64,000 nucleotides of DNA from Candidatus Krumholzibacteriia bacterium (GTDB taxonomy: Bacteria > Krumholzibacteriota > Krumholzibacteriia > Krumholzibacteriales > Krumholzibacteriaceae), in NCBI GenBank assembly GCA_963836185.1, contig CAWIIQ010000003.1:160001-224000 (forward strand), in the 5' to 3' direction. Made by a program: the position numbers and the translations under genes. Each line of letters starts with the position of its first letter. Positions within the stretch are counted from its first letter, which is position 1. Below are positions 9,967 through 25,529 of the stretch, piece by piece. Below the pieces are notes generated by a model. It was not told the origin of the DNA and ran no database searches. It was given only the letters and a program-made list of their open reading frames with translations.

Positions 9967-9984
9967 AGAAAAAGAACGACCACA

Positions 9985-10024
9985 CTGACCATTCGACGGG
10001 CGGGCCATCCGGTCCGCCCGTTTT
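9985..10024 (+). terminator. Intrinsic terminator
   Basis: GACGGGCGGGCC-ATCC-GGTCCGCCCG-TTTT. Confidence 0.75.
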
Positions 10025-10239
10025 CATCAATGCGGGCGATTCGTTTCCTGCCAGGAAAGGTCCTGTCGAAAAACCACACCTTTTACGGTTTTCCGAAAAA
10101 AATAATCTTGACACTTTTGTCCTGTTTGTGGAATTGTACTCTCTGCTGTCTCGGGCATGCCGAAGGTGGCATGCTGCTGGTAAGGTGAATTTAGGCCGCC
10201 GTCTTCTCGGCTGCCGATTCTTTTTACGGAAAAAACTAC

Positions 10240-11289
10240 ATGCAGTTTATCGACTCGACAAACTTCGAGCGGTTGCTTAAAAAACTCTCCGGCGAGGGAG
10301 AGCTTTTTGTGCCCGTCAAGGAAGAAGACACCGGAAAACTTCATATTGAGCGCGTCGAGGCCTTTCCTCTTCCCGAAGGGATGAGTGTCGAAGGCTTTCG
10401 TACGGTCGAGACACTGAAGGGATTCGCTCAGCTGCTGCGTTCGACAGTCGCCGAGTATCCCGCAGAGGAACTCGATGAGCTAGAAGCCGGTGAAAACGCG
10501 CCTTCACATATAGTGGTCGGCGCGAGGGCCTGCGACGTCGCAGCCATGGAGCTGGTCGACAAGGTGCAGGTCGAAGGAGAGTTCGAAGACCCGTTCTACC
10601 GGATCCGCAGGGAGAAGATGTTCACGATAGCCGCCGATTGTACAGACTGCGGAGATTCGTGCTTCTGCGACCTGCTGGGCAAGAGGCCGTGGCCGGAGAA
10701 GGGTTATGACCTGTCGATCTCAAAGGTTGACGCGGGGTATCTCGTCGAGACGGGATCGGAACGCGGCGAGAAAGTAGTCTCTGAAAACGGGGACCTTTTC
10801 ACCGCTCCTCGCGAGGGACAGGAGAAATCGAGAGATGACGCGCGGATGAAGGTCGTCGCGAAGCTGAAGGAAAACAACAAGGATTTCCCCGACGCCACAA
10901 AGGTGACCGAGCCCCTCAGGGCGGCGCTTTCCGACGGGCTCTGGGAAGAAGAGTCGGCCAGGTGCGTGGAGTGCGGCGCCTGTACAAATATCTGCCCGAC
11001 CTGCTATTGCTTCCTCCTGTACGATACCGTCGAGGGAGAGAAGTTCAGGCGGGTGATGTCCTGGGACAGCTGCCAGGTGACCGGATACGCGAGAATGGCC
11101 GGTATGGGCAACCCGAGGCCCCGCCTCGGCGACCGCGTGAAGCACCGTTTTTATCACAAGTATGATTATCTGCCCGTCAGTCATGGCGAGATCTTCTGTA
11201 CCGGCTGTGGCAGGTGCATCGACACCTGCAGCGCCGGGATAGACATGCGGGCAGTGTTCAAGAATGTAATGAGCAAGGCAGCCAAGTAA
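10240..11289 (+). CDS. 4Fe-4S dicluster protein, AsrA / sulfhydrogenase beta-like
   Basis: GARACD, CGDSCFC, CVECGACTNICPTCYCF, WDSC, CTGCGRCIDTC. Confidence 0.88.
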   Translation: MQFIDSTNFERLLKKLSGEGELFVPVKEEDTGKLHIERVEAFPLPEGMSVEGFRTVETLKGFAQLLRSTVAEYPAEELDELEAGENAPSHIVVGARACDVAAMELVDKVQVEGEFEDPFYRIRREKMFTIAADCTDCGDSCFCDLLGKRPWPEKGYDLSISKVDAGYLVETGSERGEKVVSENGDLFTAPREGQEKSRDDARMKVVAKLKENNKDFPDATKVTEPLRAALSDGLWEEESARCVECGACTNICPTCYCFLLYDTVEGEKFRRVMSWDSCQVTGYARMAGMGNPRPRLGDRVKHRFYHKYDYLPVSHGEIFCTGCGRCIDTCSAGIDMRAVFKNVMSKAAK

Positions 11290-11302
11290 GGGAGCTGTTG
11301 GG

Positions 11303-12130
11303 ATGAAGAATCCGTATTATCCCATCGATACCGTTGTCGAAGATGTCATAACGGAGACCCCGACGATCAAGACGTTCGTCCTCAAGCCGGTAAGGCCGAT
11401 CCAGTTCAAGGCCGGCCAGTTCATGCAGCTTACCGTCCCCGGAGTAGGCGAGGCGCCGTTCACGCCCAGCTCCGACCCGAACATAACCGAGAGGATGGAG
11501 ATAACCATTCTCAAGACGGGAAAGGTGACGGACGCTCTGCACGATCTCGGGCCCGGCGCGAAGGTCGGGCTGAGAGGGCCGTTCGGAAAGGGATATCCGC
11601 TCGACAAACTCGTGGGCAAGGATGTCCTCGTGGTAGGGGGCGGCGTGGGCCTTGCCCCTATGAGGGCGCTGCTCTACGGTCTCTTCGCCGACCCGTCGAA
11701 GTACAGAAAGATCGTCATAAAGTTCGGCGCCAGGGAACCGGCGGAGCTGAGCTTCCGCAGGCAGTATGACGAGTGGCGTGCGCTGGCGGGAAACATATCG
11801 CTTGAGACCACGATCGATATCCCTCATCCCGACTGGACGGGGCATGTCGGCCTGGTGACGACACTGCTCGATCCCGGCAAGCTCGAGGGGATCGACATAA
11901 CCGACAGCTTTGCCCTCTCGTGCGGCCCCGAGATCATGCTCAAGTTCGTCACCCTGAAACTTCTCGAGATCGGTTACAAGCCCCCGCAGATATACCTTTC
12001 GATGAACAGGAAGATGTCCTGCGGCATGGGCAAGTGCGGACGTTGTAACGTCGGCCACTATTATCTGTGCGTCGACGGTCCAGATATGTGTTACGACAAG
12101 ATCAAGCACGTTCCGAACGTGTTCGGCTAG
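11303..12130 (+). CDS. FAD/NAD(P)-binding 2Fe-2S subunit, AsrB / sulfhydrogenase gamma-like
   Basis: AGQFMQL, GEAPF, RGPFGKGYP, GGGVGLAP, CGPEIM, MSCGMGKCGRC. Confidence 0.9.
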   Translation: MKNPYYPIDTVVEDVITETPTIKTFVLKPVRPIQFKAGQFMQLTVPGVGEAPFTPSSDPNITERMEITILKTGKVTDALHDLGPGAKVGLRGPFGKGYPLDKLVGKDVLVVGGGVGLAPMRALLYGLFADPSKYRKIVIKFGAREPAELSFRRQYDEWRALAGNISLETTIDIPHPDWTGHVGLVTTLLDPGKLEGIDITDSFALSCGPEIMLKFVTLKLLEIGYKPPQIYLSMNRKMSCGMGKCGRCNVGHYYLCVDGPDMCYDKIKHVPNVFG

Positions 12131-12180
12131 TTCACTTGTGGTTTGGGCACGCATCGGCGGCCCGGGAAGAAAAGCAGTCT

Positions 12181-13968
12181 ATGAGTGAAATACGCAGCAA
12201 CTGTTCGATCTGCTCCCTCGCCTGTCCTCTGATACTCAGGGGCGGCGGCAGGAGCCCGATCTTCACGAACGAATCGGTCCTTTCGCTGGACTGGGACGAT
12301 AGTGAGGATTCAAAGTACGGCGGAAGCCTTTGTGCCCGCGGGGCGGCGATGGTTGAACTCATCTCCCATCCCGACAGGCTCAACTACCCGTTCGTTCTCG
12401 GAGAGAGGACCTCGTACGAGGCCGCCGTCAAAGACGCGGCGAAGAATCTCTCTGCCGTAAAGGGCGAAGCCGGCGGTGACGCCATCGGCGTTCTGCTCGG
12501 CGACAGCCTGACGAACGAGGAGGCGGCGCTGGCGCTGAAATTCGCCCGAGAGGTGATCGGCACCGAAAACATCGCCCTCATGGCCCCCGACGATGTCCCG
12601 CTCTTCAGGGCGTGGACGGGGATCGACCTTTCCGGCCTCACTCCCGCCGGGCAGAAGCCCGCTGGCGAGAGGCAGGTCTTCCTGCTCGTCGGAGATCCAT
12701 TCACCGAACATCCATGCACGGCAAAGGCCGTAGCGGCGGGCAAGTTCGGCGGCAGGGGGAACGAGGTTATCACTGTCAGCCCCGAGAAGAACCACTCGGC
12801 GTGGTTTGCCAACAGGCATCTCGCCTGCAGGCCCGGAGGCGAACCGGCGGTCCTTGCAGGACTGCTCAAGGCGGCGGCCGCGAAGAGCGGCGCGCAGCTG
12901 CCCGGTGAACTCGGCAAGCTGGCCAGTGCCATTGACTGGAATGAGATAGAGCGTCTCGGCGGCGTCTCGAAAGATGATATCGAGGGCGCGGCAGCTTCGA
13001 TGCTGGGAGCCGCCACTGTCGAGACTCACGTTTCGAATATATTCGGACGCTTCGGAGCGCCCGGCATCGTAGCGGTCCTGGCCGAAGCGGTCACCCGGAT
13101 CTGCCCCGGTGAAAGTCTTTTTGACGCCCAGTTCGTTCAGCAGAACACATGGGGGATCTGGTCCGTACTCGCGGGCGCGGGAATGGGCAAGACCCTGGCG
13201 AACATCGCTTCGGGCGGAGTGCAGGCTTTCATCCTTCTCGGGATAGACCCGTTCTCGGTCTTCCCCGCCGCTCCGGTGGAGAAGGCCCTTCGCGACAGCA
13301 AGTTCACCGTAGCCACGCAGCTCTTCCGGGGAGCGGCCGCATCAGGCGCCAATGTCGTCATACCGGCGGCGACCCTTGTCGAGAAGAAAGGCACGGTATC
13401 GCCCTCGTTCGACGAGGATATCGTCCGCGAGAGTACGATAGACCCGATAGCAGGGGCGGTCACGGACGGACAGTTCCTTACCGACCTGGCCAGGGAGATG
13501 GGAGCGAGGCTTGAAGGCGCTGCCGTCGAGAGAAAGACCGGAAGGACAGGAGCCGGAGAGAGCCTCGTCGCTGACTGGGCTGGTTACACGGCGGATATGA
13601 AGAGTCTGGAAAACGCGGACACAGTCTTGATTCCATGGAGCGAGGCGGTACATGCCGCGGACGGATCGATCAGCAGGAACCTCTTCTGGTCAAAGGTCAC
13701 CTGCCCCGAGCCGGAATTGATGGTCTCCATGCAGATAGCTGAAGAAATGAACCTTCGTGACGGTGACCTCCTGAAGATCACCTCCGAGGGCGGAGAGGCC
13801 GTTATACCGGCCACGATAACGGGTAAGCTCGAGGGAAGGACCGTCGCTGCGACGATACACTTCCCCTCGGTCCGCAAGCTGTTCCCGTGGAAACTGGATG
13901 AACGTCACGGAGAGATAAGCCTGGCCCCGGTCGCGGTGACCCTGGGCAGGCAAAGCGAGAAGAGCTGA
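12181..13968 (+). CDS. Molybdopterin-oxidoreductase-fold (Fdh/NuoG-like) subunit lacking the Mo-ligand Cys
   Basis: N-terminal CSICSLAC...LCARG 4Fe-4S motif, HPDRL, TNEE...KFAREVIGTEN, and a C-terminal MGD dinucleotide-binding-like domain. Confidence 0.75.
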   Translation: MSEIRSNCSICSLACPLILRGGGRSPIFTNESVLSLDWDDSEDSKYGGSLCARGAAMVELISHPDRLNYPFVLGERTSYEAAVKDAAKNLSAVKGEAGGDAIGVLLGDSLTNEEAALALKFAREVIGTENIALMAPDDVPLFRAWTGIDLSGLTPAGQKPAGERQVFLLVGDPFTEHPCTAKAVAAGKFGGRGNEVITVSPEKNHSAWFANRHLACRPGGEPAVLAGLLKAAAAKSGAQLPGELGKLASAIDWNEIERLGGVSKDDIEGAAASMLGAATVETHVSNIFGRFGAPGIVAVLAEAVTRICPGESLFDAQFVQQNTWGIWSVLAGAGMGKTLANIASGGVQAFILLGIDPFSVFPAAPVEKALRDSKFTVATQLFRGAAASGANVVIPAATLVEKKGTVSPSFDEDIVRESTIDPIAGAVTDGQFLTDLAREMGARLEGAAVERKTGRTGAGESLVADWAGYTADMKSLENADTVLIPWSEAVHAADGSISRNLFWSKVTCPEPELMVSMQIAEEMNLRDGDLLKITSEGGEAVIPATITGKLEGRTVAATIHFPSVRKLFPWKLDERHGEISLAPVAVTLGRQSEKS

Positions 13969-13972
13969 GGTT

Positions 13973-14452
13973 ATGGAGAAGAGAATCTATATCAACATGA
14001 ACCTGTGCACCGGGTGCCGCGCATGCGCTGCCGCCTGCGCCCAGGGACACCATGACCAGGGACTGCTCAAGCACGGAGCCGTGGAAGAGGTCGCCCTCAT
14101 GCCTCTCCACTGCAGGCACTGCGACACGCCGCTCTGTCTCGAGGTATGTCCCCAGGACGCGATCCAAAAAGACGACGACGGCACGATCATACGCAAGAGC
14201 CAGCTCTGCATCGGCTGCAAGTCGTGTATCATGTCCTGCCCGTTCGGTGTGATGTTCATGCATTCGACATGGCACGTGTCGCCGAAATGCGACCTCTGCT
14301 ATGATCGGCTGGAAGAGGGAAAGCAGCCGCGCTGCGTCGCGACATGTACGTCGGGGGCTCTCGTATTCGAGGAGCTTACCGACCTGGAGAAGAAACACAG
14401 GCACGCCGCTGAAGGCGGGCGTTATTTCGCCCGCTGGATGCTGGAGCGTTAG
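13973..14452 (+). CDS. 4Fe-4S electron-transfer subunit (HycB/CooF/FdhB-like)
   Basis: CTGCRACAAAC, CRHCDTPLCLEVCP, CIGCKSCIMSCP, KCDLC...PRCVATC. Confidence 0.9.
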   Translation: MEKRIYINMNLCTGCRACAAACAQGHHDQGLLKHGAVEEVALMPLHCRHCDTPLCLEVCPQDAIQKDDDGTIIRKSQLCIGCKSCIMSCPFGVMFMHSTWHVSPKCDLCYDRLEEGKQPRCVATCTSGALVFEELTDLEKKHRHAAEGGRYFARWMLER

Positions 14453-14464
14453 CGGAGAGGACCT

Positions 14465-15398
14465 ATGGACGCTGCGAAATATCTGCTCAACTTTCTGATA
14501 TTTCCCGGGTTCCTTTTCACGGCGGTCGTCGGCCTTCTGACGACGTGGGTGGACCGGAAGGTCACCGCGCGGGTACACTGGAGGGTCGGCCCTCCCTGGT
14601 ACCAGCCTTTTGCCGATACCGTGAAACTGCTCGGGAAGGAAGTCATAGTCCCCGCGGGGGCAAAGTCGACCGGATTCCTCATCGCCCCGGTCATCGGCCT
14701 CGCCGGCGCCACTCTGGCATCGACGATCCTGTGGATGACAAACCTCTATCCCACGTCGTCGTTCGTCGGCGACTCGATAGTAGTCCTCTACATAATGACG
14801 ATCCCCGCCGATCTCGATGATCATCGGGGCGAGCGCATCGGGCAACCCGCTGGGAATACTCGGCGCGGCCCGCGAGATGAAACTGCTCTTCGCGTACGAG
14901 CTTCCTCTGGTGCTCGCGATGCTGACGACGGTATACAAGGTCGGCAGCTTCTCCATCGAGGAGATAGTGAGCTTCCAGTCCTCCAACGGGGTCATGCTGG
15001 GAAGCTTCTCGGGAGTCATAGCGTTCATCGTCGCGATATTCTGCGCTCAGGCGAAATGCACGCTGCTTCCTTTCGATATTCCCGAGGCGGAGACGGAGCT
15101 GGCGGGAGGCTCTCACATCGAGTATTCCGGGGCGCCGCTTGCCGTCGTGAGGCTGAATATGGGCATCATGTTCTTCGTCGTGCCGGTATTCATCATCACG
15201 ATGTTCTGGGGCGGAGTATCCCTGGAAGGCTGGAGGATCCTCACGACGATCCTCAAGTATGTGGCGATCGTAACAATAATGGTCCTTATAAAGAACACGA
15301 ATCCCAGGGTGAGGATCGACCAGGCGGTGCGGTTCTTCTGGGGTCCGATGCTCGTACTTTCGATTATCGCAATGATCCTGGCGGTGCTGGGGTACTAG
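14465..15398 (+). CDS. NuoH/MbhM-like membrane subunit (frameshift near 14810)
   Basis: DRKVTARVHWRVGPPWYQPFADTVKLLGKE in the first frame; GAAREM...YE and PFDIPEAETEL..G.HIEYSG in the second. Confidence 0.88.
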
Positions 15399-15416
15399 AC
15401 GGCGGAGGCTCTTTAA

Positions 15417-15830
15417 ATGTCACTGGCGCTGAAAGCTTTAAAGAAATCGCCCTGGGTCTTTCACGTGAACACCGGCGCGTGCAACAACTGCGACATCGAG
15501 GTCCTCGATTGCCTGACGCCGAGGTTCGATGTCGAGAGATTCGGTATCGTTCTCGTGGGCAGCATAAGGCACGCAGACGTACTGCTTGTCAGCGGTCCGG
15601 TCACGCGCAACGTCCTGCCCCGGCTGAAGAGGCTGTACGAACAGGCGCCGAAACCGATAAAGGTGATCGTGCTCGGTGCTTGCGGATGCCGCTGCGGCAT
15701 CTTCCGCGACGGATACAATATCATCGGGCCGGCAGACAAGTTCATACCGGTCGACGCGTATGTCCCCGGCTGTCCCCCCAAGCCGGAAACGATCATAGCG
15801 GGGGTAGTAAAGGTTCTTGGAACACTCTAG
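15417..15830 (+). CDS. Group 4 [NiFe]-hydrogenase small subunit (NuoB/MbhJ-like)
   Basis: GACNNCDIE, RHADVLLVSG, GAC, VPGCPP. Confidence 0.92.
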   Translation: MSLALKALKKSPWVFHVNTGACNNCDIEVLDCLTPRFDVERFGIVLVGSIRHADVLLVSGPVTRNVLPRLKRLYEQAPKPIKVIVLGACGCRCGIFRDGYNIIGPADKFIPVDAYVPGCPPKPETIIAGVVKVLGTL

Positions 15831-15858
15831 GGATGACGAACACGGGGAAACAGGAAAT

Positions 15859-16380
15859 ATGGAACGGGAAGAAGTAAAGAAAAGAATCGCGGAGAAGTTC
15901 GGCGGCAAGGTAGAGATAGCCGACCGGTCGGAGAAGAGGGTCTATATATACGCGGAGAACGAGATCTGGGTCGATCTCGCCTCGTTCCTCTTCAACGATC
16001 TCGATGCCAGGTTCGATACGGGCGTCGGTATCGATGACCGCGACGGCGTCGAGGTCATGATGTTTTTCCCCTTCGACAAAGAACATTATTTCGTGACGAT
16101 CAAGACCTTCGCGAAGAAGCCGCATCCCGAGCTCGATTCGATCTCGCCGGTCATCCCCGGAGCGAAATGGATCGAGCGTGAGATATGGGAGATGTTCGAG
16201 GTCAACTTCCGGAACCATCCCGACCTCAGGCCGGTACTGAGGTCCGACACGAGGCCCGTTGACTTCTATCCCCAGAAGAGGGAGAACAAGACCAAGCACG
16301 AGATGTCCCGGAACAAGCTCGATGGCCAGGAAAGGGCCGACGAGGTTGCGGGAAGGCCCGAAAAGGGGAAGAACCCGTAG
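15859..16380 (+). CDS. NuoC/MbhK-like subunit
   Basis: SISPVIPGAKWIEREIWEMFEVNFRNHPDLR. Confidence 0.88.
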   Translation: MEREEVKKRIAEKFGGKVEIADRSEKRVYIYAENEIWVDLASFLFNDLDARFDTGVGIDDRDGVEVMMFFPFDKEHYFVTIKTFAKKPHPELDSISPVIPGAKWIEREIWEMFEVNFRNHPDLRPVLRSDTRPVDFYPQKRENKTKHEMSRNKLDGQERADEVAGRPEKGKNP

Positions 16381-16426
16381 ATGATTTTCAGGCCGCAAGG
16401 CTGTGTTGATAAAGAGGTGAACAGAA

Positions 16427-17632
16427 ATGGTTAAAAAGATCCCGATCGGCCCGTTTCACCCGATTCTCGAGGAGCCCGAATTCTTCGAGCTCCACGTCGA
16501 CGGGGAAAACGTGGTCGATATCGACATGACGATCGGCTGGAGCCACAGGGGGATCGAGATCCTGTCCGAGTCGAAGACCTGGGACCAGGTTCCCTTCCTC
16601 GTGGAGAGGGTCTGCGGCATCTGTTCCTGCTCCCATCCGTACGCCTATGTCAAGGCGGTCGAGGATCTTCTGCAGGTCGAGATCCCGAAGCGCGCCCAGT
16701 ACCTGAGGATCATCACCGCCGAGCTCGAGAGGCTGCACAGCCACCTGCTCTGGACCGGGCTTGCCGGCCATTTCATCGGCTACAACACGGTCTTCATGTG
16801 GTGCTGGAAATACCGCGAGCCCCTTCTCGACGTTCTCGAGGCTGTTACGGGAAACAGGAACCATTACGCGATGATGCGCATCGGCGGCGTCAGGCGCGAC
16901 ATCCCGGCGACGGAATTCGGGATGGTCCGTGAGCTGCTCGACTTCATCTGGAAGAAGAACGACATGCTCACCAACGCGATCATCGACGATCCCGTGATTC
17001 ACGCCAGGACGAAGACTGTCGGCATCTTCAACAAGGACCAGTGCCGTCTCTACGGCGCCCTCGGGCCGACGGCGAGGGCCGGCGGATACAATATCGATGC
17101 CAGGCGCGATCATCCGATCGATGCTTACGGCGAACTCGATTTTAACGTCATCGTCTGTGAGAACGGCGATGTCTTCGACAAGGCTGTCGTAAGGCAGCTC
17201 GAGAACTTCGAATCGATAAAGATCATCAGGCAGTGCCTCGACAAGCTCGAGGAGATGGGCCCGATGAAGGACGACAGCGAGCTCTGCATGGAGATCGGCG
17301 AGGTGCCGCCCGGCGAGGGCATCGGGGTATACGAGGCCCCGCGCGGCGAGGTGCTTCACTACATACGCTCGAACGGCGGGAATATGCCGATGAGGCATAA
17401 GATCCGGGCCCCGAGTTTCAACAACATCCTCACGAACGAGGCGAGCGTGCCGGGCAATACGGTGGCGGATGCCGGCCTTATAACGGCGGCAGTCGATCCC
17501 TGTTACTCGTGCACCGAGCGCGTCGGGCGCATGGATGTGAATTCCGGAGAGAGGTATCTTCTTTCCGAGGGAGACCTGATAAGGATGTCGGCGGAGAAGA
17601 CCGAAGAGATCCGCAGACAGCTCGAATTGTAA
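16427..17632 (+). CDS. Group 4 [NiFe]-hydrogenase large subunit with cleavable C-terminal extension
   Basis: IGPFHP, HRGIE, L1 motif ERVCGICSCSH, EAPRGE, L2 motif DPCYSCTER followed by a ~36-aa tail. Confidence 0.95.
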   Translation: MVKKIPIGPFHPILEEPEFFELHVDGENVVDIDMTIGWSHRGIEILSESKTWDQVPFLVERVCGICSCSHPYAYVKAVEDLLQVEIPKRAQYLRIITAELERLHSHLLWTGLAGHFIGYNTVFMWCWKYREPLLDVLEAVTGNRNHYAMMRIGGVRRDIPATEFGMVRELLDFIWKKNDMLTNAIIDDPVIHARTKTVGIFNKDQCRLYGALGPTARAGGYNIDARRDHPIDAYGELDFNVIVCENGDVFDKAVVRQLENFESIKIIRQCLDKLEEMGPMKDDSELCMEIGEVPPGEGIGVYEAPRGEVLHYIRSNGGNMPMRHKIRAPSFNNILTNEASVPGNTVADAGLITAAVDPCYSCTERVGRMDVNSGERYLLSEGDLIRMSAEKTEEIRRQLEL

Positions 17633-17665
17633 CGTAACACTTATACGCGTAGCGGAGTTGAACGC

Positions 17666-19543
17666 ATGCATGAACTTCTGTACGTAATCGTAATGCCGGC
17701 AGCGATGGGCGTCCTCACTCTCTTCTTTCCGAAGAAAGCAAGGTTGCCAGCCGGACTGATCGCCCTCCTGGCCGCTGCCTGGATGTTCGTGAAGACCATT
17801 CAGATCTTCGCGCAGGAAGGGGCCATCGGCCCGTACGCGAAGACCGTTTTCACGATCGGGGATGTCTTCCAGTTCGATTTCGCCCTGAAGCTCTCCAGCT
17901 TCAACGCGTTTGTGCTTCTGTTCATAGCGCTGTTCGGCGTTCTGATAATACTCTATTCGATAGGATACTGGTTCAAGGACAGGGCGACACCGGGGATCTA
18001 CTATTCGTACATCCTCTGGACGCTCGCGGGCGCGGCGGCCGCTGTGCTTTCCGACAACCTTCTTCTGCTTCTCGTGTCCTGGGAGGTCCTGACGCTGCTT
18101 CTCTACCTCCTCGTCAACATGGGCGGTGAGGGAGCCGAGACGGCGGCGCAGAAATGCTTCACGATCCTCGGGTTCAGCGACGCGGCTATGTTCCTCGGCG
18201 TAATCATCATCTGGATGGTCTACGGGACACTCTCGATCTCGGCGCTTGCTATCTCAACGGGCACGACGACAGGCGTGATAGCGTTCCTGCTCCTCTTTAT
18301 CGGGGCCATTGCGAAGGCCGGGGCCATGCCCCTGCACTCATGGGTGCCGGCGATAGCGAAATCCACGCCAGCTCCCGTGATGGCTTTCCTGCCCGCTGCG
18401 CTGGACAAGCTTCTCGGAATCTACCTGCTCGCGAGGATATCGCTCGACATATTCGCGATCAGGCCGGGATCGGGCCTTTCGCTCATGATGATGATCGTTG
18501 GAGGGGTGACGATACTGTTCGCCGTTCTAATGGCCCTCGTGCAGCATGATCTTAAAAAGCTTCTTTCTTTCCACGCTGTCAGCCAGGTGGGATACATGGT
18601 CCTCGGCGTTGGAAGCGGAATCCCTGTCGCCATCGTCGGCGGGCTGTTCCATATGCTCAACAATGCCATATACAAGAGCGGGCTCTTCCTTGCCGCCGGG
18701 GCTATAGAGAAGAAGGCCGGGACGACCGACCTCGGTCAGCTCGGAGGCCTGGCGAAACTGATGCCCGTCACATTCCTGACGACTGTGGTGGCGGCTCTGT
18801 CGATCTCCGGCGTACCGCCGTTCAACGGGTTTGTATCGAAATGGCTCGTTTACCAGGGAATGCTCGAGGGGCCCAGCTACAATATCATTTTCCTCGTGGT
18901 GGCCGTGTTCGGAAGCGCCCTGACGCTGGCTTCATTCGTCAAGGTGCTTCACTCCGTATTCCTCGGAAGGCGCCAGGAGAAATTCGACGGCGTGCGCGAG
19001 GCCGGATTTACGATGCAGGTCCCGATGATATTCCTCGCGATCCTCTGTATCGTATTCGGGATCTACGCACAGCTTCCGCTCGGTGAGTTCATCACCCCGA
19101 GCGTAGCGGCAGCGACAGGCGTCACCGTGGAAGAGATGACGGTGATCACCGCATCCGGCTACTGGAACCCGGTGGCGGCGACAGTGCTTATGGCTGTAGG
19201 GATCGTCGTAGGGCTGATCATTTACGCCTTCGGCCAGACAAAACGTGTACGTATAGACGAAAACGTGTGGGTCGGCGGAAACATCCTTGATAACGAAGAG
19301 ATGAGGATTCCCGGCACGCATTTCTATAAGACTGTGACTGATGACCTGTACCCCGCCTATTCGGCGCTGTTCAGGGACGGGCAGACCGGTGCCATGGATG
19401 CATACAACATCTGGGGCAAGCTAGGCTCCAACATCGTCCAGGTGCTCAGCCGGCTTCACAATGGTATTCTGTCGACGTATCTCTCCTGGACCATAATAGG
19501 CCTGGGAGCGCTTACATTCGTTTTGATGTTTTTCGCCTTGTAG
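17666..19543 (+). CDS. Proton-conducting antiporter-like subunit (NuoL/MrpA/HyfB-like)
   Basis: SWEVLT, KAGAMPLHSWVP, KKLLSFHAVSQVGY, GVPPFNGFVSKW; many TM helices. Confidence 0.9.
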   Translation: MHELLYVIVMPAAMGVLTLFFPKKARLPAGLIALLAAAWMFVKTIQIFAQEGAIGPYAKTVFTIGDVFQFDFALKLSSFNAFVLLFIALFGVLIILYSIGYWFKDRATPGIYYSYILWTLAGAAAAVLSDNLLLLLVSWEVLTLLLYLLVNMGGEGAETAAQKCFTILGFSDAAMFLGVIIIWMVYGTLSISALAISTGTTTGVIAFLLLFIGAIAKAGAMPLHSWVPAIAKSTPAPVMAFLPAALDKLLGIYLLARISLDIFAIRPGSGLSLMMMIVGGVTILFAVLMALVQHDLKKLLSFHAVSQVGYMVLGVGSGIPVAIVGGLFHMLNNAIYKSGLFLAAGAIEKKAGTTDLGQLGGLAKLMPVTFLTTVVAALSISGVPPFNGFVSKWLVYQGMLEGPSYNIIFLVVAVFGSALTLASFVKVLHSVFLGRRQEKFDGVREAGFTMQVPMIFLAILCIVFGIYAQLPLGEFITPSVAAATGVTVEEMTVITASGYWNPVAATVLMAVGIVVGLIIYAFGQTKRVRIDENVWVGGNILDNEEMRIPGTHFYKTVTDDLYPAYSALFRDGQTGAMDAYNIWGKLGSNIVQVLSRLHNGILSTYLSWTIIGLGALTFVLMFFAL

Positions 19544-19569
19544 CAAACAAAGAGGGAAAGGTATAACGG

Positions 19570-20163
19570 ATGGAGATCATTCTCCTTTTTCTGATGGTAT
19601 TCATGATAATCGGATCGATTATCGCGATCGAGACGAAGAACCTGCTTTCTTCGGTCATCTCGGTCGGCGTTGTCGGGTTCAGTCTCAGTATCATCTTCCT
19701 GATGCTTGGGGCGCCGGACATCGCGATTACACAGGTCGTGGTCGAGATCCTCATCCTTGTCGTTCTTATCAGGGCGACGGTAACGACGGACAATACCGCC
19801 ATTGAAGGCGCAAGGGATACATTCCCGTTCGTTTCGAGCCTTATATTTTTCGGGCTGTTTCTTATGTTCGCCTTTTTCGCCGTCCAGGAGCTCCCGAAGT
19901 TCGGCGAGCCCCTGATGCGTGTATCAAAGGAATATCTCAGAACGGGCACCGAGAAGACGGGCGCGACGAATATCGTGACAGCCATTCTCCTCGATTTCAG
20001 GGGTTACGATACCCTCGGCGAGGCGACGGTTCTTTTCACGTCGATAGTCGGCGCCTTCGTCATCCTCAGGAGAAAGGGCCGGAAGGGCAAGGGAGAGGTC
20101 GACAAGGAAAAATTCGGAATACTCGAGGACGAGGATATCAAGCAGAACTTCGAGGGGTTCTAG
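19570..20163 (+). CDS. MbhD/MbhE-like fusion (DUF4040 + Mrp B-related)
   Basis: APDIAITQ and NIVTAILLDFRGYDTLGEATVLF. Confidence 0.85.
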   Translation: MEIILLFLMVFMIIGSIIAIETKNLLSSVISVGVVGFSLSIIFLMLGAPDIAITQVVVEILILVVLIRATVTTDNTAIEGARDTFPFVSSLIFFGLFLMFAFFAVQELPKFGEPLMRVSKEYLRTGTEKTGATNIVTAILLDFRGYDTLGEATVLFTSIVGAFVILRRKGRKGKGEVDKEKFGILEDEDIKQNFEGF

Positions 20164-20173
20164 GGAGCGCTAA

Positions 20174-20671
20174 ATGGACAGACTCGAACAGGAAATCAAG
20201 GATACCAGCAAGGGGATGACCCCGATAGTCAAGACTATCGTAAGGTTTGTGATCGGGATCATCATCATTTTCGGGGCATATATCGTCCTGTACGGACACC
20301 TTACCCCGGGCGGCGGCTTCGCCGGCGGCGTGATCCTCGCCTCGGCCTATGTGCTCCTTACGCTGGCCTTCGGCAAGGAAATGGGCCTGAGCAAGATGAG
20401 CAACACAGGGGCCTCGCTTCTCGATAACTCGGGTGCGCTGGCGTTTGTGATCATTGGGCTGCTGGGATATACCGGCGGGTACTTTTTCCTGAACTTCCTG
20501 CCGCGGGGAGAGACGTTCCAGCTGTTCAGCGCTGGATCGATACCCCTGGCGAATATAGCAATAGGCGTGAAGGTGACAGCGTCGGTCTTCGCGATATTTA
20601 TGGCCCTCTCGATCTTCGGAAGGTTCATATACAAGGCAGCCGAAGGCGATGAGCTGGAAAGCGAGGAATAA
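20174..20671 (+). CDS. mnhB: Mrp antiporter subunit B (MbhF-like)
   Basis: YGHLTPGGGFAGG motif. Confidence 0.88.
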   Translation: MDRLEQEIKDTSKGMTPIVKTIVRFVIGIIIIFGAYIVLYGHLTPGGGFAGGVILASAYVLLTLAFGKEMGLSKMSNTGASLLDNSGALAFVIIGLLGYTGGYFFLNFLPRGETFQLFSAGSIPLANIAIGVKVTASVFAIFMALSIFGRFIYKAAEGDELESEE

Positions 20672-20674
20672 CGG

Positions 20675-21025
20675 ATGATCCTGTATTTTCTTTCACTGGT
20701 GATGCTGGTAATGGGGCTCTACTGCCTCATCGCCAAGAAGAATATCGTAAAGAAGATCATAGGGATCGTGATCGCCGAATATTCCATCAACCTTTTCCTC
20801 GTTCTCGTGGGATACAGGCGTGGAGGTATCGCGCCCATTCTTCTGAAAGGTATGCAGCCCGAGGAGCTCGTGCAGAAGGGCGTCGATCCTCTGCCGCAGG
20901 CTCTCGTGCTCACGTCGATCGTCATCGGACTCGGAACGCTGGCCCTCATGGTGGCCCTCTGTCTGAGGATGTATGAGAAGTACAAGACGTTCGACATGTC
21001 AAAGATAAACACGCTTAAGGGATAA
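20675..21025 (+). CDS. mnhC: Mrp antiporter subunit C (MbhG-like)
   Basis: VDPLPQALVLTSIVIG. Confidence 0.92.
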   Translation: MILYFLSLVMLVMGLYCLIAKKNIVKKIIGIVIAEYSINLFLVLVGYRRGGIAPILLKGMQPEELVQKGVDPLPQALVLTSIVIGLGTLALMVALCLRMYEKYKTFDMSKINTLKG

Positions 21026-21035
21026 GAGGAGTCAA

Positions 21036-22538
21036 ATGCAGACGTATTATCCATTGTTCACGGCGATTCCGCTTGCTGCGGCGTTTCTGAACCTTCTTCT
21101 GTCGAAGATCTCGATGAAGGTGAGCGACTATATCGCGTTCCTCGTGACAGGGATTCTGGCCGTGATGTCCGTCAAGATGCTCTTCGAGGCTCCTTTCATC
21201 TATGCTGTCGGAAACTGGCGGCCGCCCTTCGGCATCCTGCTCGTCTCTGACGGGCTGAGCTCGATGATGCTGGTAGTAATCAACGTGATCGCCCTGCTCG
21301 CCGTCATCTTCTCGATGAAGTACATGTCGACCTACACGGCCAAGCCGAAATATTTCTCTCTATTCATGCTGATGATCGCCGGCATGAACGGCGTCGTCAT
21401 CACGGGCGATATGTTCAATCTCTACGTTTTCCTCGAGATCGCGTCGATCGCCTCGTACGCACTCGTCGGATTCGGCACGGGAAAGAAAGAGCTCGAAGCG
21501 TCGTTCAAGTATCTTATCCTCGGCGGCGTTGCCAGCACGGCGGTCCTCTTCGGGATCGCGTTCCTCTATTCGATGACAGGCACGCTTAACATGCCGGACC
21601 TCGCGCAGCAGCTCGAGGTGATAGGCATGACGAAGACGATCGGATTCGTGGTCGCCCTGTTCATCATGGGCTTCGGGCTGAAAGCCTCGGCCGTTCCGTT
21701 CCATGCCTGGCTGCCCGACGCTCATCCCAGCGCCCCGGCGCCGATCTCCGCGATGCTTTCGGGCGTTCTTATCAAGGCCCTCGGGATCTACACGATAATG
21801 CGCATAATGTTCAACATAGTCGGCAAGAACGAGCTGATCGGAACGATCATAATGTTCCTCGGCGCGCTGTCGATGGTGATCGGCGGCCTCCTGGCCGTGG
21901 GCCAGAAGGATTTCAAGAGGATGCTCGCCTATTCCTCGATCAGCCAGATGGGATACGTGCTGATCGCGTTAGGTCTTGCCCTGAAACCCGGCACTGAGAT
22001 CGTCGTCGCTTCACTTGCCCTTATCGGAGGGCTTTTCCATCTCGTCAACCACGCCGTTTTCAAGTCGCTTCTCTTCCTCGCCTCCGGGGCAGTAGAGTAC
22101 CGGACGGGAACACGCGACCTCGGAAAGCTCGGCGGACTGATAAAGAAGATGCCGATTACCGGCGCGGCGACCGCTATCGGCTCGCTGTCTATTGCCGGGG
22201 TTCCGCCGTTCAACGGTTTCTGGAGCAAGCTGATCATCATCCTGGCCCTCTTCCGGGGAGGATACTGGATCTATGGAACGGTCGGTGTCGTGGTAGGATT
22301 CATTACGCTGATCTATTTCGTGATGCTCCAGAAGGAAGTGCTCTTCGGGAAGCTCCCGGAATCACTGAGCAAGATCAAGGAAGCTCCGTTCGCCATGGTG
22401 CTGCCACTGGTTATTCTGGCGGCCCTCTGTGTGGCGATGGGAATCGGATACATGGCCATCGAAGGGCAGATGCTCGATTCGGCGGCGAACGCGCTGCTCG
22501 ACAAGATGGCGTACATGAACTATCTGATCGGTGGGTAG
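21036..22538 (+). CDS. mnhD: Mrp antiporter subunit D (MbhH-like)
   Basis: GNWRPPFGI, DMFNLYVFLEI, PFHAWLPDAH, KRMLAYSSISQ, PPFNGFWSK. Confidence 0.92.
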   Translation: MQTYYPLFTAIPLAAAFLNLLLSKISMKVSDYIAFLVTGILAVMSVKMLFEAPFIYAVGNWRPPFGILLVSDGLSSMMLVVINVIALLAVIFSMKYMSTYTAKPKYFSLFMLMIAGMNGVVITGDMFNLYVFLEIASIASYALVGFGTGKKELEASFKYLILGGVASTAVLFGIAFLYSMTGTLNMPDLAQQLEVIGMTKTIGFVVALFIMGFGLKASAVPFHAWLPDAHPSAPAPISAMLSGVLIKALGIYTIMRIMFNIVGKNELIGTIIMFLGALSMVIGGLLAVGQKDFKRMLAYSSISQMGYVLIALGLALKPGTEIVVASLALIGGLFHLVNHAVFKSLLFLASGAVEYRTGTRDLGKLGGLIKKMPITGAATAIGSLSIAGVPPFNGFWSKLIIILALFRGGYWIYGTVGVVVGFITLIYFVMLQKEVLFGKLPESLSKIKEAPFAMVLPLVILAALCVAMGIGYMAIEGQMLDSAANALLDKMAYMNYLIGG

Positions 22539-22556
22539 AAAAAGAAAAGGTAGAAG

Positions 22557-23042
22557 ATGAAACGCTTTGTCCACTTTCTGTTGCTGTTGGGTATCTGGAT
22601 GCTGCTGACATGGTCGCTGCACTGGCAGGACCTTCTTGTCGGGGTGATCATCGCTCTGATCGCCGACCTGATGCTTGGTGACATCTACCCTGTCAATGCG
22701 GTCAAGATCCTGAACCCGGTCCGGTTCTTCTGGTTCATCGTATACGGCATCACCTTCCTCGGGTATGTTGTCAGGGCGAATTTCGATGTTGCCTACAGGG
22801 TGCTGAACATCAATATGCCGATACGGCCGGGAATAGTGAAAGTACGGACCAGGCTCAAGACCGACCTGGCCAGGACCTTCCTCGCGAACTCGATCACGCT
22901 GACCCCGGGCACGCTCAGCGTCGACTGCGTGGATGACCATCTATATGTCCACTGGATTAATATCGTTTCGGACGATCCCGTGAAGGAAACGGAGATTATT
23001 GTTCAGCATTTTGAGAAACTGCTAGAAAGGGTATTCGAGTGA
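22557..23042 (+). CDS. mnhE: Mrp antiporter subunit E (MbhA-like)
   Basis: LANSITLTPGTL, LYVHWI. Confidence 0.92.
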   Translation: MKRFVHFLLLLGIWMLLTWSLHWQDLLVGVIIALIADLMLGDIYPVNAVKILNPVRFFWFIVYGITFLGYVVRANFDVAYRVLNINMPIRPGIVKVRTRLKTDLARTFLANSITLTPGTLSVDCVDDHLYVHWINIVSDDPVKETEIIVQHFEKLLERVFE

Positions 23043-23293
23043 TCGTATTTGTCTCATTGCTGGTCCTCTGCATCTTTCTCTGTCTGTACAGGGTAGGGAA
23101 GGGTCCGACCGCTCCGGACAGAACGGTGGCGATCGACATACTAGGAACGCTCGTAGTGGGGTTCTGCGCGATATACTCGATCATCACCAAGAAAGACCTG
23201 TACATGAACATCGGAATATCATGGGCGCTCCTGAGCTTTATCGGGACACTCGCCCTTGCCAAATATCTGGAAGGGAGGGGTTTCGATGAATGA
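23039..23293 (+). CDS. mnhF: Mrp antiporter subunit F (MbhB-like)
   Basis: GPTAPDRTVAID; overlaps the upstream stop (GTGA). Confidence 0.88.
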   Translation: MIVFVSLLVLCIFLCLYRVGKGPTAPDRTVAIDILGTLVVGFCAIYSIITKKDLYMNIGISWALLSFIGTLALAKYLEGRGFDE

Positions 23294-23630
23294 GATAATC
23301 GGATTGACACTGTTGATCATCGGCATCTCGTTCGATGTCATCGGGTGTATCGGACTCGTCCGGCTGCCCGACATCTATAACCGCCTCCAGGCGGCGACGA
23401 AGTGCGTAACGCTCGGCACGTGCATGATCCTTCTCAGCGTCGTCTTCTACACCGGACTCAACTCGATCGGTGTAAAGGCTCTGCTGTGCATCTGGTTTGT
23501 CCTGATGACATCGCCCACGGGCGCGCATGCCATCGCCAGGGCCGCCCACCGTTCGGGTATCAGGCTCTGGGAGGGCAGCATCATGGACAAGTACGCGGAC
23601 GACAGGGAAGGCGCGGAGGATATAGCCTGA
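23286..23630 (+). CDS. mnhG: Mrp antiporter subunit G (MbhC-like)
   Basis: RLPDIYNRLQAATK, TSPTGAHAIARAA. Confidence 0.9.
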   Translation: MNEIIGLTLLIIGISFDVIGCIGLVRLPDIYNRLQAATKCVTLGTCMILLSVVFYTGLNSIGVKALLCIWFVLMTSPTGAHAIARAAHRSGIRLWEGSIMDKYADDREGAEDIA

Positions 23631-23661
23631 GAAAGGCGATGGAACATCGGGGGTTTTTCAA

Positions 23662-24291
23662 GTGGCGATTCGTAAACCGAAGCTGAGAGAATTAAAAGAG
23701 GCAGTGACTGCCCTGATAATGGGGCCGTACACGTCGAAGTTCCCGAAGGTGATGCCAGTCATGCCGGAGGGCTTCAGAGGGACCCCCACGTACGTTCCCG
23801 ATGAATGTGTGGGCTGCGGGTCGTGCGGCCAGGTCTGCCCGGCCGGAGCGATCACTATCGTCGATCGAGTGAACGACGAGGGCAGGATGGTGCGCTATAT
23901 AGAGCGCAACTGGGGATCGTGCATATTCTGCAGCCAGTGCTTTGTATACTGCATAACGGGAAAGGGGATCAAGCTCGATCCCGATTTCGAGAAGTCGGCC
24001 CTTTCTCCCTCGGACGTCATCGATTCCCATGAGAAGGAGCTCCTCTTCTGCGAGAGCTGCGGCGGTGTCGTAACGGCCGAGGACCACGCGAGGTGGTGCT
24101 CGAGGCAGCTCGGCGAGCTGGCATTCGGCAACCAGACACTCAACGTACTGAAGTACAAGGATCTCGGGCTGGTAGAGGAGAACACGGGAACGAACGAGAG
24201 GAAATCTCTCGAAAGAGACAGATACATGAAGATCATGTGTCCCAACTGCCGCTCTTCCTATATCCTCTCCGACGAGTGGGGAACGAGCTGA
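23662..24291 (+). CDS. NuoI/MbhN-like 4Fe-4S subunit with extra C-terminal Cys pairs
   Basis: PYTSKFP, GFRG, CVGCGSCGQVCP, CIFCSQCFVYC, CESC...CPNC. Confidence 0.88.
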   Translation: MAIRKPKLRELKEAVTALIMGPYTSKFPKVMPVMPEGFRGTPTYVPDECVGCGSCGQVCPAGAITIVDRVNDEGRMVRYIERNWGSCIFCSQCFVYCITGKGIKLDPDFEKSALSPSDVIDSHEKELLFCESCGGVVTAEDHARWCSRQLGELAFGNQTLNVLKYKDLGLVEENTGTNERKSLERDRYMKIMCPNCRSSYILSDEWGTS

Positions 24292-24318
24292 TCGAACGGG
24301 AAAAGGATTCGTACTTTC

Positions 24319-24345
24319 AAGGCCCCATACGGGGCCTTTTTATTT
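24319..24345 (+). terminator. Intrinsic terminator ending the hydrogenase structural operon
   Basis: AAGGCCCC-ATAC-GGGGCCTTTTTATTT. Confidence 0.8.
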
Positions 24346-24365
24346 GAACCGGCCGGAGGAAAAGG

Positions 24366-24836
24366 ATGAACGGGTTCGAAAAGGAACTGCTCGAGAAACT
24401 CAAGGGAAAGAGATTCGGAGTAGTCGGTATCGGAAACGTGATAAAGGGTGATGACGGGGCGGGCTGCGTGGTCATCGAACGGCTCGGCGAGGGTTTCGCT
24501 ATGCCGACGGTAGACTGCGCCGAGGTTCCCGAAAATTACGGCGGCTGGGTGGAGAGGCGCGACCTCGAAGCGGTAGTATATATTGACGCGGTAGAGTTCG
24601 GTGGCGAGCCCGGAGAGGTGAGGATAATCCCCCTCGAGAAGATGATGGAGTCGGCTACGAGCACGCATCACCTTTCACTCCACTATATGATCAGGTTCCT
24701 CAAGGAAGAGTGGGAGGGGGAAGCGATCATGGTGGGGATCCAGCCTGTCTCGATGATGATCGGCGACGGGATCTGCGAAGAGGTGTCGGCGGGAGTCGAT
24801 CTGGTCGCCGGTGTCCTGGCGAAGGCTCTGGAATAA
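24366..24836 (+). CDS. hycI: Hydrogenase maturation endopeptidase (HycI-like)
   Basis: VVGIGNVIKGDDGAG, VPENY, IDAV, STHHLSL, GIQP. Confidence 0.9.
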   Translation: MNGFEKELLEKLKGKRFGVVGIGNVIKGDDGAGCVVIERLGEGFAMPTVDCAEVPENYGGWVERRDLEAVVYIDAVEFGGEPGEVRIIPLEKMMESATSTHHLSLHYMIRFLKEEWEGEAIMVGIQPVSMMIGDGICEEVSAGVDLVAGVLAKALE

Positions 24837-24869
24837 TCCGGAATCAATGTTTAAAGGGATAGATATGAG

Positions 24870-24897
24870 AAGGGCGGCCTGGAAGGCCGCCCTTTTT
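24870..24897. terminator. Terminator between convergent hycI and iorB
   Basis: AAGGGCGGCCT-GGA-AGGCCGCCCTTTTT. Confidence 0.75.
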
Positions 24898-24932
24898 GTC
24901 CGATTCATAAAAGGGAGAGTCCAGATCCCATA

Positions 24933-25511
24933 TCAAGTAGATCTTCCAGCCAGGAAAGCCTTCCGGTTGATCTCTCCCGTACCCTTCGGCGCCATCTTCT
25001 CGATGACTTCGAGCCACTTCTCTTCCGGCAGGTCCGTAGACTGTGACAGCACTCCGAGAAGGATCGTGTTGACCATGCGCGGATTGCCGAGCTCCTTCGC
25101 GATATCGGTCGCCTCGATCAGTTTAGCCTCCGGAGCTCGTGCCCTTATCCTGCCCATCACATCCTCGGGATAGAAAAATTTCCCCGTGGCGGTGATCGGA
25201 GGGACGAGCTTGTGATCGTTCACGATGAAGGTGCCGCCCTCCGCGAGCTGATGGATCCACCTGAGGCCCTCTGCCAGCTCGAAGGCGAGGATGATATCCG
25301 ATTCACCGGCAGGGATCAGCGGCGAATAGACCTTCTCGCCGAAGCGTATATGGCTGGATACCACTCCGCCGCGCTGCGACATCCCGTGGACCTCGCTCTT
25401 CTTGGCGTCGAGCCCCATTATCTTTGCCACCTCGCACAGGATCTCGCTGGCGAGTATGACACCCTGTCCCCCGACACCTACGATCAGTACATTCGTGATT
25501 CCATTCTTCAT
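24933..25511 (-). CDS. iorB: Indolepyruvate:ferredoxin oxidoreductase beta subunit
   Basis: GVGGQGVILAS, SEVHGMSQRGG, SPLI. Confidence 0.95.
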   Translation of the reverse strand: MKNGITNVLIVGVGGQGVILASEILCEVAKIMGLDAKKSEVHGMSQRGGVVSSHIRFGEKVYSPLIPAGESDIILAFELAEGLRWIHQLAEGGTFIVNDHKLVPPITATGKFFYPEDVMGRIRARAPEAKLIEATDIAKELGNPRMVNTILLGVLSQSTDLPEEKWLEVIEKMAPKGTGEINRKAFLAGRST

Positions 25512-25529
25512 TATTCGTGCAACTCCTCT

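Follow-up and report, generated by a model that had tools for sequence, protein, structure and literature searches.

A Hun-type, Mrp-linked group 4 [NiFe]-hydrogenase operon of Krumholzibacteriota and its possible coupling to NAD(P)H

Which electron donor serves a membrane-type [NiFe]-hydrogenase whose operon opens with relatives of the NADPH-binding part of a soluble hydrogenase? The question is raised by a stretch of 64,000 nucleotides (hereafter the window) from a Candidatus Krumholzibacteriia bacterium (assembly GCA_963836185.1, contig CAWIIQ010000003.1, positions 160,001 to 224,000 of the forward strand; coordinates below are window positions unless a genome handle is given). According to the list of open reading frames (ORFs) and the Pfam and NCBIfam matches, 17 structural genes and hycI lie co-directionally on its + strand at 10240-24836. 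We predict that they encode a Hun-type, Mrp-linked group 4 [NiFe]-hydrogenase exchanging electrons between NAD(P)H and protons/H2 together with ion movement, and we assign this reading a probability of about 0.5. A preliminary description of the window had listed these genes, and every member was recovered on the + strand at or near the positions given there. It had also proposed an Mrp-coupled group 4 hydrogenase, which agrees with the complete Mrp module and with an Mbh-like core: the solved structures that the large subunit resembles most are Pyrococcus furiosus MbhL (6cfw_L, 5.4e-90) and, second, Escherichia coli HycE (7z0s_E, 4.5e-74). The suggested AsrA/AsrB-like pair with group 3b kinship was likewise recovered; among solved structures, the two leading proteins come nearest to the beta (9nez_B) and gamma (9nez_C) subunits of sulfhydrogenase I from P. 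furiosus (E-values in the table). The names of homologs also place the organism in Candidatus Krumholzibacteriota. The large subunit has the L1 motif RVCGICSCSH and the L2 motif DPCYSCTER, followed by a 36-residue C-terminal tail which, by analogy, is of the kind removed by a HycI-type protease.

The operon is real and conserved. A profile of the formate dehydrogenase-like (Fdh-like) subunit, run against species-representative genomes, yielded 39 loci, and the same genes, order and strand were seen in all of them as far as visible, the order being judged up to the contig end or a 10-kb flank; 19 loci span the asrA-like to nuoI-like genes. When a second profile was built from far Fdh-like relatives, which are 19-30% identical to the window protein, 26 metagenome loci were obtained. 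The gene order was again the same in 26 of 26 as far as the contigs reach, and five span the whole run. The single co-directional operon envisaged in the preliminary description is therefore supported by both sets of loci, and the synteny check proposed there came out in its favour, with the four leading genes beside the hydrogenase in all 65 related loci. In a survey of the phylum the Fdh-like ortholog was detected in 42 of 208 genomes and the large-subunit ortholog in 42 genomes, with one 43%-identical match elsewhere. The two co-occur in 41 genomes, while each was found alone in one genome, both of these being incomplete; all the carriers of either ortholog belong to one order (families f1, f2 and f3).

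The operon is also expressed in relatives. None of the sequencing runs searched contained this strain (the highest word share was 0.31, with no run reaching half), and the RNA evidence consists of contigs of a relative that is about 89% identical, from two metatranscriptome runs of one study. One contig of 8254 nt spans 10207-18361 and has adaptor sequence at its 10207 end, a second spans 10177-15161, and a third, 4733 nt long, spans 19615-24344. The contigs beginning at 10177 and 10207 bridge the genes from asrA-like through nuoL-like, including the junctions of the four leading genes. Although a contig across several genes does not prove a single transcript, these contigs are consistent with one transcription unit reaching from the asrA-like to the nuoI-like gene.

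The preliminary description knew of no biochemical characterisation of this architecture; the architecture itself, however, has been noticed before, and two reports have it in print. The accessible part of the preprint by Glass et al. (bioRxiv 10.1101/536078) describes Hun as a 16-subunit Ni-Fe hydrogenase-Na+/H+ antiporter supercomplex carried by Atribacteria, Firmicutes, Omnitrophica, Elusimicrobia, Bacteroidetes and Kosmotoga. HunG is there placed in group 4g with the L2 motif CYCC, and in some of the metagenome-assembled genomes (MAGs) a molybdopterin-domain protein stands between HunB and HunC. As far as that text goes, the two agree in several points: an AsrA/AsrB-like pair (HunAB) leads, a 4Fe-4S protein (HunC), a hydrogenase module and a full Mrp-like module follow within one operon, the L1 motif of both large subunits contains CGIC, and the Fdh-like gene of the window lies between the hunB-like and hunC-like genes, as in some Hun MAGs. 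However, the window operon has 17 subunits rather than 16, Krumholzibacteriota is not among the phyla named for Hun in that part of the preprint, and L2 reads CYSC. This CYSC is identical in 44 of 44 clade relatives of the large subunit; among the next homologs, which are about 60% identical, CYCC occurs in 37 of 45 and CYSC in 8 of 45, and the CYSC forms may or may not count as HunG. The homolog search returned few organism names outside Krumholzibacteriota. Judged by these features the operon is Hun-type in the broad sense.

The second report, by Matheus Carnevali et al. 2019 (PMC6349859), describes in the accessible portions of its main text and Supplementary Note 5 an "enigmatic" group 4 [NiFe] hydrogenase of Saganbacteria RX5A with relatives in Zixibacteria and Omnitrophica. 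There, too, asrA-like, asrB-like and cooF-like genes are joined to an Mrp-Mbh-type hydrogenase, and a molybdopterin protein annotated as formate dehydrogenase has a single 4Fe-4S domain and could not be classified as such an enzyme. Its authors suggested that asrA, asrB and cooF resemble nuoE and nuoF in role. The Saganbacteria cluster belongs to another phylum, and our comparison with it is by description, not by sequence. What the window holds is thus a Krumholzibacteriota representative of a known but biochemically uncharacterised kind of operon, and the literature on Krumholzibacteriota that was searched contained nothing on this gene cluster. The evidence added here concerns the missing genes for molybdenum cofactor (Moco) synthesis in a genus that keeps the Fdh-like subunit, the conserved Asp at its selenocysteine (Sec)/Cys position, the differing pace at which the subunits evolve and the RNA cover of the operon in relatives.

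The case for NAD(P)H starts from the AsrB-like flavoprotein. Its FAD motif GEAPFTPSS and its nucleotide motif GGGVG.AP are invariant in 52 sequences covering both clades, which speaks for functional binding of flavin and nucleotide. This invariance makes coupling to NAD(P)H plausible. Electrons from NAD(P)H would then enter at the FAD of the HydG/AsrB-like subunit and its 2Fe-2S cluster, move on to the clusters of the HydB/AsrA-like protein and to the four-cluster HycB-like subunit, and could finally reach the Ni-Fe site through the NuoI-like and NuoB-like clusters. Coupling of this flow to the movement of H+ or Na+ would fall to the NuoH-like, NuoL-like and Mrp A'-G subunits. The Fdh-like protein may act as a connector holding one [4Fe-4S] cluster. 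The AsrA-like protein weakly resembles FdhB of an F420-dependent formate dehydrogenase (8rvu_E, 8.7e-6), which hints at an FdhA/FdhB-like contact between the Fdh-like and AsrA-like subunits. The donor, path, docking, ion coupling, direction and ion are what we infer, the electron path by analogy with sulfhydrogenase I and E. coli formate hydrogenlyase (FHL). Most likely the complex would re-oxidise NAD(P)H to H2 in fermentation, with the ion gradient helping at high H2 and being built at very low H2. If NAD(P)H is indeed the donor, this widespread complex would connect the pyridine-nucleotide pool of anaerobes with H2 by a membrane-coupled route. To our knowledge, such a route is offered by none of the characterised group 4 hydrogenases, which are linked to ferredoxin, formate or CO.

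Several observations weigh against NAD(P)H coupling or against the assignment as a whole. Under standard conditions, H2 formation from NADH is an uphill step, and Mbh uses ferredoxin. The L2 motif differs from HunG's published CYCC. In this assembly a frameshift interrupts the nuoH-like gene (see below), and this strain may therefore not make the complex. A Rex-type operator, with the consensus TTGTGAA-N6-TTCACAA, had 0 matches in the window with up to three mismatches allowed. Literature searches, outside which most subscription journals lay, found no biochemical data on any member. Downstream, iorB-like and iorA-like genes for an indolepyruvate/2-oxoacid:ferredoxin oxidoreductase, a ferredoxin-reducing enzyme, lie at 24933-27356 on the - strand, convergent with hycI. 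Stretches of five relatives were fetched for this neighbourhood, and four of them had any match (G070, locus L051, matched no query): hycI follows the nuoI-like gene in 4 of these 4, and the convergent iorB-iorA pair is kept beside it in 3 of 4, across two families. Moreover, the describers of Hun themselves predicted ferredoxin as its donor (section 8 in the accessible text of bioRxiv 10.1101/536078), whereas we favour NAD(P)H.

Ferredoxin is accordingly the main rival donor. Electrons would then arrive on reduced ferredoxin, supplied for instance by IorAB, at the HunABC-like iron-sulfur subunits or at the NuoI-like one, and H2 evolution would pump ions as in Mbh, with the flavoprotein merely a relay or regulatory site. 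Besides the published prediction and the retained iorB-iorA neighbours, this possibility gains from the closeness of the large subunit to that of the ferredoxin-dependent Mbh and from two Rnf/Nqr-type clusters in the genome, which could handle NADH/ferredoxin exchange. We nevertheless consider it rather unlikely, as the FNR-type FAD/NAD(P) fold is complete and its nucleotide motifs do not vary in any of the 52 sequences, the flavoprotein finds its nearest relative among solved structures in the gamma subunit of sulfhydrogenase I, which binds NADPH, and Mbh accepts ferredoxin without such a module. It is also conceivable that the complex takes both donors in a confurcation-like manner, NAD(P)H and reduced ferredoxin together yielding H2 and Mrp trimming the energy balance. 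Such a scheme would solve the uphill step from NADH to H2, it would make use of two possible entries, the flavoprotein pair and the HycB-like/NuoI-like polyferredoxins, and IorAB adjoins the operon. This speculative idea appears improbable to us, since none of the known bifurcating flavin modules (NuoF/HydB-type, HdrA, NfnB, EtfAB) is among the operon's Pfam and NCBIfam matches.

If the flavoprotein pair does take up electrons from NAD(P)H, what does the Fdh-like subunit contribute? It keeps the N-terminal CxxCxxxC...C [4Fe-4S] motif. However, in alignments with FdhH and three other solved formate dehydrogenases, Asp D138 falls in the Sec/Cys column and a variable residue in the His141 column, and no variation was seen in the stretch A-P-D-D around this site among 25 and among 32 family members. 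The same was seen in wider relatives. A representative search listed 148 further proteins, and among the 77 of 520-640 residues that were aligned, the column holds Asp in 65 and Cys in none; several of the 12 exceptions look by eye like ordinary Mo enzymes. A predicted model (pLDDT 88.9, pTM 0.91) has a complete MopB fold, with a TMq of 0.76-0.78 against FdhH and 0.58-0.61 against mycobacterial NuoG, to which the profile match is 3.1e-9. The protein labelled "Fdh-fold" in the preliminary description has this fold and lacks Sec/Cys and His at the catalytic positions. The subunit is also the fastest-evolving one: its median identity to the window protein is 60.2% in the genome loci and 24.5% in the metagenome loci, as compared with 78.7% and 54.5% for the large subunit and 77.5% and 60.9% for the AsrB-like subunit.

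The distribution of Moco-synthesis genes bears on the same question. MoaC, MoeA_N and Mob_synth_C each occur in 29 of the 52 genomes of the order. In the genus g16, each of them was found in 0 of 16 genomes, five of which are at least 90% complete (one of these in 5 contigs), while an uninterrupted Fdh-like ortholog is present in 16 of 16; in total, 21 of the 42 carriers of the Fdh-like gene had no MoaC match. Two points tell against this argument, namely that the three markers share one gene cluster and hence count as one with regard to assembly gaps, and that two g16 genomes (G061 and G068) hold further PF00384 matches. The related genomes are, in addition, not independent. For the window's own genome, in which MoaC, MoeA and two other MopB proteins are present, the test is uninformative.

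Judging by its residues, the Fdh-like subunit is not a formate dehydrogenase. As it is kept in a genus without detected Moco-synthesis genes (0 of 16), it is most likely a pterin-free, cofactor-less adaptor, analogous to the Fdh-like domain of NuoG in complex I. The opposite view would make the operon an Mrp-linked formate hydrogenlyase of the Thermococcus Fdh-Mfh-Mnh type, in which a Mo/W centre oxidises formate or another substrate, perhaps with the Asp as a metal ligand. NarG-type enzymes do use Asp as Mo ligand; Asp is kept at the ligand column in 65 of 77 relatives, the layout of Fdh-like, HycB-like and hydrogenase genes matches FHL, the modelled fold is complete and closer to FdhH than to NuoG, and MoaC and MoeA occur in the genome of the window. 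We regard this view as very improbable, given that Sec/Cys and His are absent from all 25 and 32 family members and from the alignments to four solved enzymes, that the Fdh-like subunit evolves fastest within the complex, and that it is kept in 21 genomes in which MoaC was not found, including the whole of g16. According to the accessible text of bioRxiv 10.1101/536078, moreover, only some hun operons contain the gene. Homologs are routinely annotated as "selenocysteine-containing dehydrogenase" or "NuoG", and metabolic reconstructions may through such annotation count the carrier genomes as formate oxidisers.

Other MopB genes and hydrogenase homologs were encountered in the course of this survey. 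In the window's genome, a MopB-family gene at G000:C1:328643-329936 is spread over two open frames (257 and 884 aa), for which a Sec codon or another frameshift is possible. At G000:C1:874494-875627 lies a MopB gene belonging to an ORF type of about 1230 aa that is found order-wide, including the genus without Moco genes, and an AsrB-like gene is located 4 kb from it. A second homolog of the group-4 large subunit, with 42% identity, occurs in some g16 genomes (G063, G066 and G068); the one in G068 stands near a better-scoring MopB gene (G068:C62:4767-10733), and no Moco-synthesis genes were found in this genome.

With P. furiosus Mbh (6CFW) the operon shares the best solved large-subunit match, an Mrp-derived membrane arm, NuoB/C/H/I-like subunits and the Ni-Fe ligands. 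The gene orders differ, and the four extra soluble subunits of the window operon are conserved together with the core, whereas the ferredoxin-coupled Mbh type is defined by the lack of a dedicated soluble donor module, with ferredoxin docking on the NuoI-like subunit. As described in the accessible part of PMC8165549, Mbh consists of 14 subunits, takes ferredoxin and has no flavoprotein, HycB-like or Fdh-like subunit. Sulfhydrogenase I (9NEZ) has homologs of its beta and gamma subunits here; it is, however, a soluble tetramer with group 3 alpha and delta subunits, while the window operon has NuoD/NuoB-type catalytic subunits on a group 4 membrane core. Membership in group 3b was rejected on these catalytic subunits and their membrane partners. 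The chain of Fdh-fold, HycB-like, HycF/NuoI-like, NuoB-like and large subunit recalls E. coli FHL-1 (7Z0S/7Z0T) and the Mrp-linked Fdh-Mfh-Mnh system of Thermococcus. Among solved structures HycE ranks second for the large subunit, and a HycI-type protease is shared with FHL. In contrast to FHL, the Fdh-like subunit here lacks Sec/Cys-His, an extra HydB/HydG-like pair is present, and Moco genes were not found in g16, which keeps the subunit; assignment to the formate hydrogenlyases (4a/4b) was rejected on the missing Sec/Cys and His and the 0 of 16 g16 genomes with Moco markers. The Thermococcus system is named as a formate hydrogenlyase type in the accessible part of PMC8165549.

The likeness to complex I extends to a non-catalytic Fdh-fold part (the C-terminal domain of NuoG), a nucleotide-oxidising module and a NuoB/C/D/H/I/L core. 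Complex I differs in that NuoE/F, families absent from the operon's Pfam and NCBIfam matches, were not seen here, in that the NuoD homolog of the window keeps the Ni-Fe ligands, and in that the Fdh-like fold is nearer FdhH than NuoG. Membership in respiratory complex I was rejected, since both CxxC motifs are present and no NuoE/F family was matched. A bolder and more tentative proposal, to which we give somewhat less than even odds, is that the operon encodes a true ion-coupled NAD(P)H:H+ oxidoreductase, an independently assembled counterpart of complex I in which the sulfhydrogenase-type pair would take the role of NuoE/F and a dead formate dehydrogenase that of NuoG on an Mbh/Mrp core. If this is true, sediment fermenters could dispose of NAD(P)H as H2 while drawing on or feeding an ion gradient. 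With NAD(P)H as donor, the operon would further provide a second case of a dead formate dehydrogenase recruited as connector, which would bear on the origin of NuoG in complex I.

Can the complex be made in this strain at all? The preliminary description had overlooked a frameshift in the nuoH-like gene. Positions 8-107 of the Pfam NADHdh profile match in one frame and positions 113-297 in another, and the gene falls into an N-terminal piece (14465 to about 14806) and a C-terminal piece (about 14808 to 15398); a 470-aa ORF at 14465-15877 is mostly spurious. The cause is one uncompensated extra base at 14808 (CCCCG[C]CGATC). None of the 7 aligned relatives and none of the 6 close loci has it, and it is likewise missing in the RNA contigs of the metatranscriptome runs X16 and X17. 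It is possible that this insertion is real and that the operon is a pseudo-operon in this genome, as the base has no counterpart in any relative or RNA contig examined. We hold this to be unlikely, because the other 16 structural genes and hycI are intact and two further breaks fit indel errors of the 6-contig assembly. One of them, about 5 kb upstream of the nuoH-like break, is a second frameshift, an uncompensated +1 at 9683 in the conserved TPR and thioredoxin-fold gene (WCAPC motif, 8994-9966, +), where the base is absent from 8 aligned relatives; the other is a Mvh-type small-subunit gene elsewhere in the genome that is likewise split over two frames. Since three such breaks hit conserved genes of one 6-contig assembly, we think it more probable that the assembly is wrong than that the gene is dead. 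No run with this strain over 14808 was found, and the best DNA run (X1) had no contig over this position. In one relative, the large-subunit gene was matched as two overlapping pieces (L024:14188-15373), which suggests a frameshift in that assembly.

The features of the locus are listed in the table below. Three starts deserve comment. The Fdh-like gene most likely begins at ATG 12181, giving 595 aa in agreement with its homologs. For the NuoC/MbhK-like gene, ATG 15859 (the Met at residue 15) is likelier than TTG 15817, where the ORF opens, and for the MrpG-like gene ATG 23286 is the likelier start.

Table. Genes and signals of the hydrogenase locus, with window coordinates
Feature	Position	Strand	Evidence and remarks
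Hairpin and T-run closing the upstream thioredoxin-fold gene; 5' boundary, outside the operon	9996-10027	+	By eye: ACGGGCGGGCC atcc GGTCCGCCCGT TTTC
TTGACA, -35-like hexamer after an A-tract	10108-10113	+	Invariant in 8/8 aligned relatives
HydB/AsrA-like (HunA-like) iron-sulfur subunit, 349 aa	10240-11289	+	Pfam Fer4_22 4.4e-29; NCBIfam ShyB/HydB/AsrA; PDB 9nez_B 2.4e-39
HydG/AsrB-like (HunB-like) flavoprotein with FAD, NAD(P) and 2Fe-2S parts, 275 aa	11303-12130	+	Pfam FAD_binding_6, NAD_binding_1, DHODB_Fe-S_bind; PDB 9nez_C 5.5e-44
Fdh-like (MopB-fold) subunit, 595 aa	12181-13968	+	N-terminal 4-Cys [4Fe-4S] motif; Asp at Fdh Sec/Cys column
HycB/CooF-like (HunC-like) polyferredoxin, 159 aa	13973-14452	+	16 Cys in four cluster motifs; Pfam Fer4_11 4.5e-23
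NuoH/MbhM-like membrane subunit	14465-15398	+	Reading frame broken at 14808; Pfam NADHdh in two frames
NuoB/MbhJ-like small subunit, 137 aa	15417-15830	+	Own ORF; Pfam Oxidored_q6 1.3e-28; NCBIfam NuoB 4.2e-38
NuoC/MbhK-like subunit	15859-16380	+	Pfam Complex1_30kDa 8.7e-20
[NiFe] large subunit, 401 aa	16427-17632	+	L1 and L2 motifs, C-terminal tail for HycI; Pfam; PDB 6cfw_L
NuoL/MrpA-N-like antiporter subunit, 625 aa	17666-19543	+	Pfam Proton_antipo_M 1.9e-50
MbhD/MbhE-like subunit (resembles MrpA C-terminal part; A'), 197 aa	19570-20163	+	Pfam MbhD, MbhE
MrpB-like subunit	20174-20671	+	Pfam MnhB 2.6e-23
MrpC/NuoK-like subunit	20675-21025	+	Pfam Oxidored_q2 2e-25
MrpD-like antiporter subunit, 500 aa	21036-22538	+	Pfam Proton_antipo_M 8.3e-70
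MrpE-like subunit	22557-23042	+	Pfam MNHE 3.9e-41
MrpF-like subunit	23039-23293	+	Pfam MrpF_PhaF 8e-18
MrpG-like subunit	23256-23630	+	Pfam PhaG_MnhG_YufB 7.2e-26
NuoI/HycF-like subunit, 209 aa	23662-24291	+	Two [4Fe-4S] motifs and extra C-terminal CxxC...CxxC; Pfam Fer4_7; NCBIfam FHL iron-sulfur subunit 1.4e-23
Intrinsic-terminator-like hairpin and T-run between the nuoI-like gene and hycI	24319-24345	+	Hairpin 24319-24338, then TTTATTT; best-scoring site of the region
HycI-type maturation endopeptidase, 156 aa	24366-24836	+	Pfam HycI; NCBIfam hycI 1.9e-24

The boundaries of the operon were examined as well. Flanking terminators had been proposed at about 10020 and 24340. The latter stands, being the best site in the terminator scan; the former is a hairpin at 9996-10023 followed by TTTTC that was seen by eye, is absent from the list of the scan and belongs to the upstream gene. 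A leader of about 100 nt after the TTGACA hexamer is conserved within the genus. The region 10100-10240 (+) contains two hairpin-forming stretches, in which both partners of some paired positions differ between relatives. A search of 9950-10300 against Rfam gave no family at threshold, the lone sub-threshold match being BjrC68 (16.4 bits; gathering score 39). At the other end, hycI sits behind the 24319-24338 terminator. RNA contigs of three studies end at 24274-24344, separate contigs lie on iorB-iorA, and hycI is covered by a DNA run. None of the RNA contigs of X16, X17, X19 and X20 lies on 24345-24970 (hycI), a hole in contig cover which by itself proves nothing. The RNA contigs as a whole give a weak hint that the transcription unit ends at the terminator before hycI.

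With respect to the wider genome, HypD is present, and NuoH homologs were found only in the two Mrp-linked clusters, so that no canonical complex I was found. The second Mrp-linked cluster (G000:C1:1867086-1875881) has the Mbh/Mbx gene order and a NuoD-like protein of 390 aa without both Ni-Fe CxxC motifs; by these features it looks like an Mbx/Mbs-type complex and not a hydrogenase. In addition, a Mvh-type group 3c [NiFe] hydrogenase, consisting of an MvhD-like, a small and a large subunit (RICGVC...DPCFSC), is encoded beside hyp genes at G000:C1:1574888-1577774.

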